Source: Escherichia coli (GTDB lineage: Bacteria > Pseudomonadota > Gammaproteobacteria > Enterobacterales > Enterobacteriaceae). Taken from it: a stretch of DNA of 64,000 bases. This document shows positions 48,601-51,600 of the stretch, in pieces. Each line of letters starts with the position of its first letter. The stretch's first letter is position 1. Location of the stretch: the NCBI RefSeq assembly GCF_024700885.2, contig NZ_CP117016.1, one strand, 5' to 3'. Position numbers: made by a program.

Positions 48601-51600
48601 GGCGATCCTCAAAACGCTGGGGGCAGGGCGAGCGCAACTGCGTAAGCTAATCGTCGGTCAGTGGTTGATGGTGCTGGCGCTTTCAGCCGTTACCGGTGGG
48701 GCGATAGGCCTGTTGTTCGAAAACGTGTTGATGGTGCTGCTCAAGCCCGTTCTGCCTGCTGCACTACCGCCAGCCAGCCTCTGGCCGTGGTTGTGGGCGC
48801 TGGGCACCATGACGGTCATCTCGCTGCTGGTGGGGCTACGACCGTACCGCCTGTTGTTGGCAACGCAGCCTTTACGCGTATTACGTAATGATGTGGTCGC
48901 GAACGTCTGGCCGCTCAAGTTTTATCTGCCGATTGTCAGTGTGGTGGTTGTGCTGCTGCTCGCCGGATTAATGGGTGGCAGTATGCTGCTCTGGGCGGTG
49001 CTGGCGGGCGCGGTAGTACTGGCTTTGCTATGCGGTGTGCTGGGCTGGATGCTGCTGAATGTACTTCGCCGCATGACGCTGAGATCGCTACCTCTGCGCC
49101 TGGCGGTTAGCCGCCTGTTACGTCAGCCGTGGTCAACGTTAAGCCAGCTTTCGGCATTTTCGCTCTCCTTTATGCTGCTGGCGCTGTTGCTGGTATTGCG
49201 TGGCGATCTGCTCGACCGCTGGCAACAGCAGCTACCGCCAGAAAGCCCGAACTACTTTTTAATCAACATCGCCACAGAACAGATTATGCCGCTAAAAACG
49301 TTCCTCGCGGAACATCAGATAGTCCCGGAATCATTTTATCCGGTGGTGCGGGCGCGACTGACGGCGATTAACGGCAAGCCGACAGAAGGCAATGAAGATG
49401 AGGCGCTTAACCGCGAACTCAATCTTACCTGGCAAAATACGCGGCCCGATCATAATCCGATTGTCGCCGGTAACTGGCCGCCAAAAGCCGATGAAGTGTC
49501 AATGGAAGAGGGGCTGGCGAAACGCTTAAACGTTGCCCTCGGCGATACTGTGACTTTTATGGGCGATACCCAGGAGTTCCGCGCTAAAGTGACCAGCCTG
49601 CGCAAAGTTGACTGGGAAAGTCTGCGGCCTAATTTCTATTTTATTTTCCCTGAAGGGGCATTAGACGGGCAACCGCAGAGCTGGCTTACCAGTTTCCGCT
49701 GGGAGAATGGCAACGGCATGTTGACGCAACTCAACCGCCAGTTCCCGACCATTAGCCTGTTAGACATTGGCGCGATTTTAAAACAGGTCGGCCAGGTGCT
49801 GGAGCAGGTAAGTCGGGCGCTGGAGGTGATGGTGGTGCTGGTCACCGCCTGCGGTATGTTGCTGTTGCTGGCACAGGTGCAGGTGGGAATGCGTCAGCGT
49901 CATCAGGAGCTGGTGGTGTGGCGCACACTCGGTGCGGGGAAAAAACTGCTGCGCACCACGTTGTGGTGTGAGTTCGCCATGCTCGGGTTTGTTTCTGGCC
50001 TGGTGGCCGCAATTGGTGCGGAAACGGCGCTGGCAGTGTTGCAGGCGAAAGTGTTTGATTTCCCGTGGGAGCCAGACTGGCGATTGTGGATTGTGCTGCC
50101 GTGCAGCGGTGCGCTGCTGCTGTCGCTTTTCGGCGGCTGGCTGGGTGCGCGGCTGGTTAAGGGTAAGGCGCTGTTCAGGCAGTTTGCGGGGTGATGAGAG
50201 TAAATAAGGGGCGTTCTGGTTGAATGGAACGCCTTGTTTAAATTAATTCTACAATATGTTTCATTGATGATGTTATTGAATTGGTGATTTCCTATCTTTC
50301 TATTGCTGATATTAATCTGAATCGGTGGAGTTTAATAATTTTAAATATAGCCCTACAAAAATAACTCAGACTAATAAAATCATAAACCATATGCGTTGAA
50401 TGGATATTATCCATATAGTGAATTTGTTGATGATGAATTCATCTGTGCTAAAAATGTTAGTTTAATAAAATATTGAAAGTGACCTGTAATAACAGTTGTT
50501 GTTGATTGAGAACAAATAAGTTTATGTGAAAAATATATAAATACATTAGCTGGTCTTGTGTGTCATTTTATTTTTTTGTTGCTAACACAGGAATATGAAC
50601 AATAACTAAAAGGGCACTTTATATGAGCGGAAAACCAGCGGCGCGTCAGGGAGATATGACTCAGTATGGCGGTCCCATTGTCCAGGGTTCGGCAGGTGTA
50701 AGAATTGGCGCGCCCACCGGCGTGGCGTGCTCGGTGTGTCCGGGCAGGATGACTTCGGGCAACCCGGTAAATCCGCTGCTGGGGGCGAAGGTGCTGCCCG
50801 GCGAGACGGACCTTGCGCTGCCCGGCCCGCTGCCGTTCATTCTCTCCCGCACCTACAGCAGCTACCGGACGAAGACGCCTGCGCCGGTGGGGATTTTTGG
50901 CCCCGGCTGGAAAGCGCCTTCTGATATCCGCTTACAGATACGCGATGATGCACTGGTACTCAACGACAACGGCGGACGGAGCATTCACTTTGAGCCGCTG
51001 CTGCCGGGGGAGGCGGTGTACAGCCGCAGCGAGTCCCTGTGGCTGGTGCGTGGCGGTAAGGCAACGCAGCCGGACGGCCACACGCTGGCGCGGCTGTGGG
51101 GGGCGCTGTCGCCGGATATCCGGTTAAGCCCGCATCTTTACCTGGCGACCAGCAGCGCACAGGGACCGTGGTGGATACTGGGGTGGTCAGAGCGGGTGCC
51201 GGGTGCTGAGGACGTACTGCCAGCGCCGCTGCCGCCGTACCGGGTGCTTACCGGGCTGGCGGACCGCTTCGGGCGGACGCTGACGTACCGGCGTGAGGCC
51301 GCCGGTGACCTGGCCGGGGAAATCACCGGCGTGACGGACGGTGCCGGGCGGGAGTTCCGTCTGGTGCTGACCACGCAGGCGCAGCGGGCGGAAGAGGCCC
51401 GTAAACAGCACACCGCTTCCTTATTTTCCCCTGACACCCCCCGCCCTCTTTCAGCCTCAGCGTTCCCCGACACACTGCCCGGTACCGAATACGGCCCCGA
51501 CAGGGGCATCCGTCTTTCGGCGGTGTGGCTGATGCACGACCCGGCATACCCGGAGAGCCTGCCCGGTGCGCCACTGGTGCGGTACACGTATACGGAAGCC

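Follow-up and report, generated by a model that had tools for sequence, protein, structure and literature searches.

The DNA analyzed here, referred to as the window, is a stretch of 64,000 nucleotides from Escherichia coli (contig NZ_CP117016.1). The part of it considered below is a classical rhsD locus with the following components.

47780 to 50194, plus strand: ybbP, encoding an ABC transporter permease of 804 aa, the conserved left flank (ORF; annotated as ybbP in strain 1190)
50195 to 50622, plus strand: AT-rich spacer (leader) 5' of rhs, 428 bp, 28.3% GC
50623 to 54834, plus strand: RhsD-type polymorphic toxin gene, 1403 aa, with a GC-rich core and an AT-rich 3' end (Pfam and GC profile)
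54815 to 55306, plus strand: AT-rich 163-aa ORF that overlaps the rhs stop codon, a putative immunity gene (ORF call)
50198 to 56305, no strand: replaceable segment, the whole ybbP-mnmH interval with the leader, rhs, the putative immunity gene, and relics

The spacer is the exact gap between the end of the ybbP ORF at position 50194 and the start of the 1403-aa Rhs ORF at position 50623. The Pfam content of the Rhs ORF consists of DUF6531, nine RHS_repeat matches, and RHS; past the RHS core motif, its 3' toxin domain matches no Pfam family. The 163-aa ORF at 54815 to 55306 has no Pfam match and is annotated as "hypothetical," and it is its position alone that makes it a putative immunity gene. 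The rhs 3' end and this ORF (54300 to 55600) have 31 to 38% GC and form a classical AT-rich "core extension." Beyond the ORF lie relics and then mnmH, allS, allA, allR, gcl, hyi, and glxR. One relic is a 78-nt remnant of a second rhs 5' end (55673 to 55750), which is 82% identical to positions 50623 to 50700 and is annotated as a partial pseudogene. The DNA just before it (55307 to 55672; 36% GC) has no homology to the leader, with a local alignment score of 21 versus 21.4 ± 2.7 for shuffles.

The lowest-GC 428-bp stretch across all 64 kb begins at position 50197, and the GC content of the spacer falls from 28.3% to 26.4% when the ybbP terminator hairpin is left out. AT content well above average is typical of H-NS targets, and the spacer, at 28.3% GC, stands against a window average of 54.7%. 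The last 400 bp of ybbP have 59 to 62% GC and the first kilobase of rhs has 60 to 74%, so that there is a sharp compositional step on either side of the spacer. An earlier sequence-only reading had described about 430 bp of strongly AT-rich leader in front of a GC-rich rhs gene and had placed a compositional boundary there; its coordinates are exact, and the boundary is borne out by GC of about 60% or above on both flanks. It had also called the spacer low-complexity DNA, which does not hold, since the k-mer entropies (k = 1 to 4) and the zlib compressibility equal those of mononucleotide shuffles and there is nothing beyond base composition. The sole simple-sequence feature is the T7 run at 50571 to 50577. 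Over the spacer and its flanks (49795 to 50722), the window is 100% identical to strain 1190 (NZ_CP023386).

Other AT-rich stretches are found elsewhere in the window. A second AT-rich spacer, of about 32% GC (15998 to 16334), precedes genes for type I secretion and for a TolC-family protein, together with the ORF of a giant adhesin. This ORF (17799 to 34982) has 5727 aa here versus 6925 aa for siiEA in strain 1190, a difference in adhesin length between otherwise near-identical strains. A third stretch at about 40750 to 41350 (down to 31% GC), 5' of a YadA-like adhesin gene (39436 to 40731, minus strand), may be another H-NS-type target.

Within the rhs spacer itself, the following elements were located.

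50208 to 50235, plus strand: terminator-like hairpin 3' of ybbP, inside the replaceable segment, an 11-pair stem followed by GTTTAAATT
50462 to 50490, plus strand: predicted sigma-70 promoter of the rhsD operon, TTAATA-17-TGTAAT (motif from PMC3946193, located in the window)
50506 to 50534, plus strand: second promoter-like site, TTGAGA-17-AAAAAT (consensus scan, 9 of 12 matches)
50571 to 50577, plus strand: poly-T tract of variable length, T7 here, 46 to 52 bp 5' of the ATG (strain alignment)
50610 to 50614, plus strand: Shine-Dalgarno-like AAGGG, 8 nt 5' of the ATG (read from the sequence)

The hairpin has an RNA folding energy of -16.1 kcal/mol (z = -5.07 versus shuffles) and is identical in all six aligned strains. 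It is plausible that it represents the ybbAP terminator, though its U tract is weak. The spacer beyond it comprises about 390 bp at 26% GC. The predicted promoter occurs unchanged in the window and does not vary among six divergent strains, and the Shine-Dalgarno sequence is likewise invariant across the six aligned strains. The long untranslated leader of about 125 nt that this promoter would give, together with the presence of several stop-free frames of 20 to 60 codons, might suggest a product of the spacer itself, be it a cis-acting structured RNA leader, an sRNA, or a small protein. We consider this extremely unlikely. An Rfam scan of positions 49900 to 50900 at E ≤ 1 returned no family, and the fold of the putative 5' UTR (50497 to 50640) is no more stable than those of shuffles (z = -0.67). 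There is no ORF of at least 60 aa inside the spacer, and the short stop-free frames are what is expected of AT-rich DNA. The RefSeq genomes compared have no annotated feature in the spacer, and there are no homologs outside E. coli to supply covariation.

The K-12 ortholog of the spacer is 98.6% identical to the window allele and has been catalogued twice. It is promoter island 522099_304, ybbP(+)/rhsD(+), one of 78 such islands (Panyukov & Ozoline 2013, PMC3661553, Table 1), and its equivalent in the window is as follows.

50239 to 50540 (approximate), no strand: equivalent of K-12 promoter island 522099_304, H-NS bound (mapped from PMC3661553)

The position is approximate; the island coordinates, which are those of U00096.2, were mapped via L003 (ybbP end at 522054, rhsD start at 522485). 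Four of five predictors flag the island as associated with foreign genes (PMC3661553). H-NS ChIP data, to which the sequence-only reading had pointed as a check, agree with it: the island carries the H-NS code "A," meaning that the K-12 DNA is bound in all of the ChIP-chip sets compared (Grainger, Kahramanoglou, and Oshima) (PMC3661553). In the second catalogue (Shimada et al. 2014, PMC3946193, Table 3), genomic SELEX places sites of both the RpoD holoenzyme and H-NS in the spacer from ybbP to rhsD, and the rhsD operon promoter is predicted as TTAATA-17-TGTAAT. The yncH>rhsE spacer, 5' of the sister gene rhsE, is marked likewise in the same table (PMC3946193). As a set, the promoter islands are reported to be bound by RNA polymerase, with little productive transcription and short abortive oligonucleotides.

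The K-12 island between ybbP and rhsD (Panyukov & Ozoline 2013; Shavkunov et al. 2009) is orthologous DNA with the same flanking genes, and both it and the window spacer are AT rich, are dense in promoter-like sites, and adjoin a gene of foreign origin. The window allele differs from that of K-12 in having T7 rather than T9, a few SNPs, and another Rhs C-terminal toxin (1403 versus 1426 aa). Since the spacer is in both K-12 catalogues, the interpretation first given to it is essentially the published view. The feature is real and its interpretation is supported, but it is already catalogued and not new. Of the proposal that this is an H-NS-silenced promoter region, the binding of H-NS and of RNA polymerase stands, all of the binding data being from K-12 and not from the window strain, whereas we infer from this binding that it silences rhsD, just as we infer the position of the transcription start and any bridging. 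In the literature on rhsD regulation, the spacer is mentioned only in the catalogues PMC3661553 and PMC3946193, and the Cappable-seq supplement has no rhsD entry by gene name or coordinate prefix.

Promoter islands are recognized by an extreme density of predicted transcription start points over at least 300 bp and by a link to horizontally acquired genes. The leader has both, with 17 hexamer-pair sites in 428 bp and a location within the replaceable segment. This number is the maximum among the 428-bp windows (median, 2; 95th percentile, 8) and is a simple count of hexamer pairs, not a result of PlatProm, the tool that defines the published islands. Shuffles of the leader contain 18.7 ± 4.5 such pairs, and a strict promoter scan of the leader gave 1 site versus 1.4 expected. 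Similarly, matches to the H-NS motif (TCGATAAATT-like, up to 3 mismatches) number 14 versus 10.1 ± 3.1 in shuffles, which is no excess, and the frequency of TpA steps in the leader is not above that given by composition. Periodicity of AA/TT at 10 to 11 bp was looked for in the leader because curvature had been suggested as a check; it was not found. The leader thus shows no evidence of a high-affinity nucleation motif or of curvature from phased A tracts, features that are not strictly defining for H-NS targets because H-NS also binds generic AT-rich DNA. As the counts of promoter-like and H-NS motifs are those predicted by composition, the sequence carries no sign of selection for regulation, and the "promoter island" property of the leader follows from its 26% GC and is not evidence of selected sites.

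These results bear on whether the spacer is simply neutral filler, AT-rich DNA at the edge of an acquired segment to which H-NS and RNA polymerase bind, as they would to any DNA of 26% GC, without consequence, with rhs expression set by other means such as read-through or internal promoters. Composition explains the promoter-like pairs, the H-NS motif matches, and the TpA steps alike, in keeping with such a role. However, with a strong hairpin behind ybbP, rhs requires a promoter of its own at this site, and the invariance of the Shine-Dalgarno sequence and of the predicted promoter among the six aligned strains also argues against filler. Overall, we regard neutral filler as unlikely, and the distribution of the leader, described next, bears on it from both sides.

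The leader is present in 2906 of 5426 complete E. coli genomes (~53%), once in each, always between ybbP and rhs, and with 95 to 100% identity. By comparison, ybbP is matched in 5419 of the 5426. Apart from the T tract, the leader has a constant length, with 98 to 100% identity, across about 2900 genomes of several lineages, and the retention of both sequence and length on this scale is a further point against neutral filler. In genomes with other alleles, homology ends at 50197 to 50204, no more than 10 bp from the ybbP stop codon, and restarts at 56306 to 56315, at the mnmH stop codon. These end points indicate that the whole ybbP-mnmH interval is a replaceable cassette. The leader, with the ybbP terminator included, belongs to the rhsD cassette, and the spacer is the left edge of that cassette. 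The alternative content varies: one genome (L004) has REP sequences and a dinQ-like type I toxin, another (L006) has the REP sequences as in L004 but nothing annotated, and a third (L002) has an IS1-associated deletion. In a fourth (L005), an Hcp-fused effector gene (tssD, 667 aa) and three DUF2931 genes occupy the interval, in a cassette that also contains a terminator and a short AT-rich leader of its own. Counting the rhsD cassette, E. coli thus has a multi-allelic hotspot between ybbP and mnmH, and the rhsD segment was presumably acquired horizontally.

Copies of the leader were not found 5' of other E. coli rhs genes in either the near or the distant search mode. An origin of the leader from a mobile element was also considered and rejected, given that there were no phage matches and that the only "plasmid" matches were chromosome-like E. 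coli records and one 19-kb Klebsiella oxytoca record.

The poly-T tract is the variable part of the leader. Exact-length counts among 2865 genomes give 178 with T7, 1373 with T8, and 1282 with T9, and these differences account for part of the spread in spacer length (428, 429, and 430 bp) among the six aligned strains. The tract is T7 in the window and T9 in K-12 derivatives; three O157:H7 matches have a spacer of 429 bp, with T8 in the one included in the alignment. A (T)9-to-10 mutation has been reported in a laboratory K-12 derivative (PMC11541549). With three lengths common in the population, a change that arose in a laboratory lineage, and a position 46 to 52 bp before the ATG, the tract could be imagined as a switch that works by strand slippage to tune or phase-vary the expression of rhs. 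We think this very unlikely, because no convincing pair of -35 and -10 elements brackets the tract and runs of 7 to 9 are short for classical phase variation. Furthermore, length seems to follow lineage in the few strains inspected, and homopolymer lengths are error prone in long-read assemblies.

A scan of one genome per species recovered 18 enterobacterial loci with the same type of Rhs N terminus and one distant actinomycete match; the leader comparison covered the 18 enterobacterial loci. The RhsD-type N termini in other Enterobacteriaceae are 74 to 96% identical over 200 aa, and none of the 18 loci has sequence similar to the leader. On this comparison, the leader does not travel with rhs, and its lack of conservation with rhs in other genera is a point in favor of neutral filler. 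At 9 of the 18 loci, rhs begins 43 to 81 bp 3' of a large ORF, with 43 to 55% GC upstream; the 4 of these ORFs that were run against Pfam are VgrG (Phage_GPD, Phage_base_V, and Gp5_trimer_C). The vgrG-rhs operons of other Enterobacteriaceae thus share the RhsD-type N terminus and have rhs 43 to 81 bp after vgrG, without a leader, whereas in E. coli vgrG is absent and the locus is equipped with an AT-rich promoter region of its own, 428 bp long.

Among the 18 loci, an AT-rich leader occurs only where there is no vgrG upstream, and besides E. coli these are the loci of Atlantibacter hermannii and E. albertii. The leader in A. hermannii (L015, 3475 to 4000) has about 450 bp at 27% GC and lies 5' of a vgrG-less RhsD-type gene, and that in E. 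albertii has about 200 bp. Neither has a sequence related to that of the E. coli leader, and the A. hermannii leader appears to be an independent instance of the E. coli architecture. A decayed vgrG remnant was rejected as the source of the E. coli leader, which has no similarity to the vgrG-containing upstream regions of the 18 loci and whose 28% GC rules out a GC-rich gene that decayed only recently. We also found an rhs N terminus 96% identical to the E. coli protein on a 3.5-kb contig binned as a Lentisphaerae MAG (L007; JALHET010000378.1), with a truncated ORF upstream of rhs that is probably vgrG. This contig is most likely an enterobacterial contamination of the Lentisphaerae bin.

Taken as a whole, we consider it likely that the spacer is the AT-rich promoter and leader region of a stand-alone, vgrG-less rhsD operon that is silenced by H-NS. 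Transcription of ybbAP would most likely stop at the hairpin at 50208 to 50235. The ~390 bp beyond it, at 26% GC, would offer RNA polymerase many weak sigma-70-like sites, the best published candidate being that at 50462 to 50490, which would produce a 5' UTR of ~125 nt. The same AT richness would provide a nucleation platform for H-NS as a xenogeneic silencer, and H-NS filaments formed there would block full-length transcription of rhs in ordinary growth until H-NS is displaced or depleted. These filaments may also bridge to the second AT-rich block, formed by the rhs 3' end and the immunity gene (54300 to 55600).

Known H-NS-silenced acquired promoters (the appY island, bgl, proU, and Salmonella SPI-6) likewise combine AT-rich upstream DNA with acquired cargo and H-NS occupancy. 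Both bgl and proU have upstream and downstream silencer elements, and by this likeness the AT-rich block downstream in rhs could act as a bridging partner. Unlike in these systems, the body of rhs between the two AT-rich blocks is unusually GC rich (60 to 74%). We know of no counter-silencer for rhsD. A more elaborate version, in which an H-NS-bridged loop between the leader (50236 to 50622) and the toxin/immunity end (~54300 to 55600) locks the toxin gene and the T7, T8, or T9 tract sets the tightness of the promoter, is speculative and in our estimate quite improbable. If it were true, E. coli lineages would differ in their basal rate of Rhs toxin deployment.

The Salmonella island SPI-6, which carries rhs, is described as silenced by H-NS, and little transcript of full-length rhs is made there; additional promoters within the gene drive transcription of its toxin and immunity parts (PMC7043789). 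These internal promoters are a further point for neutral filler in E. coli. They also mean that the leader may control only the full-length, deliverable protein, and by analogy it probably governs only this form of Rhs. Internal promoters like those of Salmonella could make it irrelevant to the expression of toxin and immunity.

With silencing by H-NS as the preferred reading, the occurrence of leaders only beside vgrG-less rhs genes fits the concept of stand-alone toxin genes that are kept quiet by xenogeneic silencing. The practical value of this is modest, and the current understanding is unchanged. Since the spacer is the only obvious transcription entry for full-length Rhs at this locus, a signal that wakes rhsD, possibly a counter-silencer, stress, or H-NS depletion, would have to act there.
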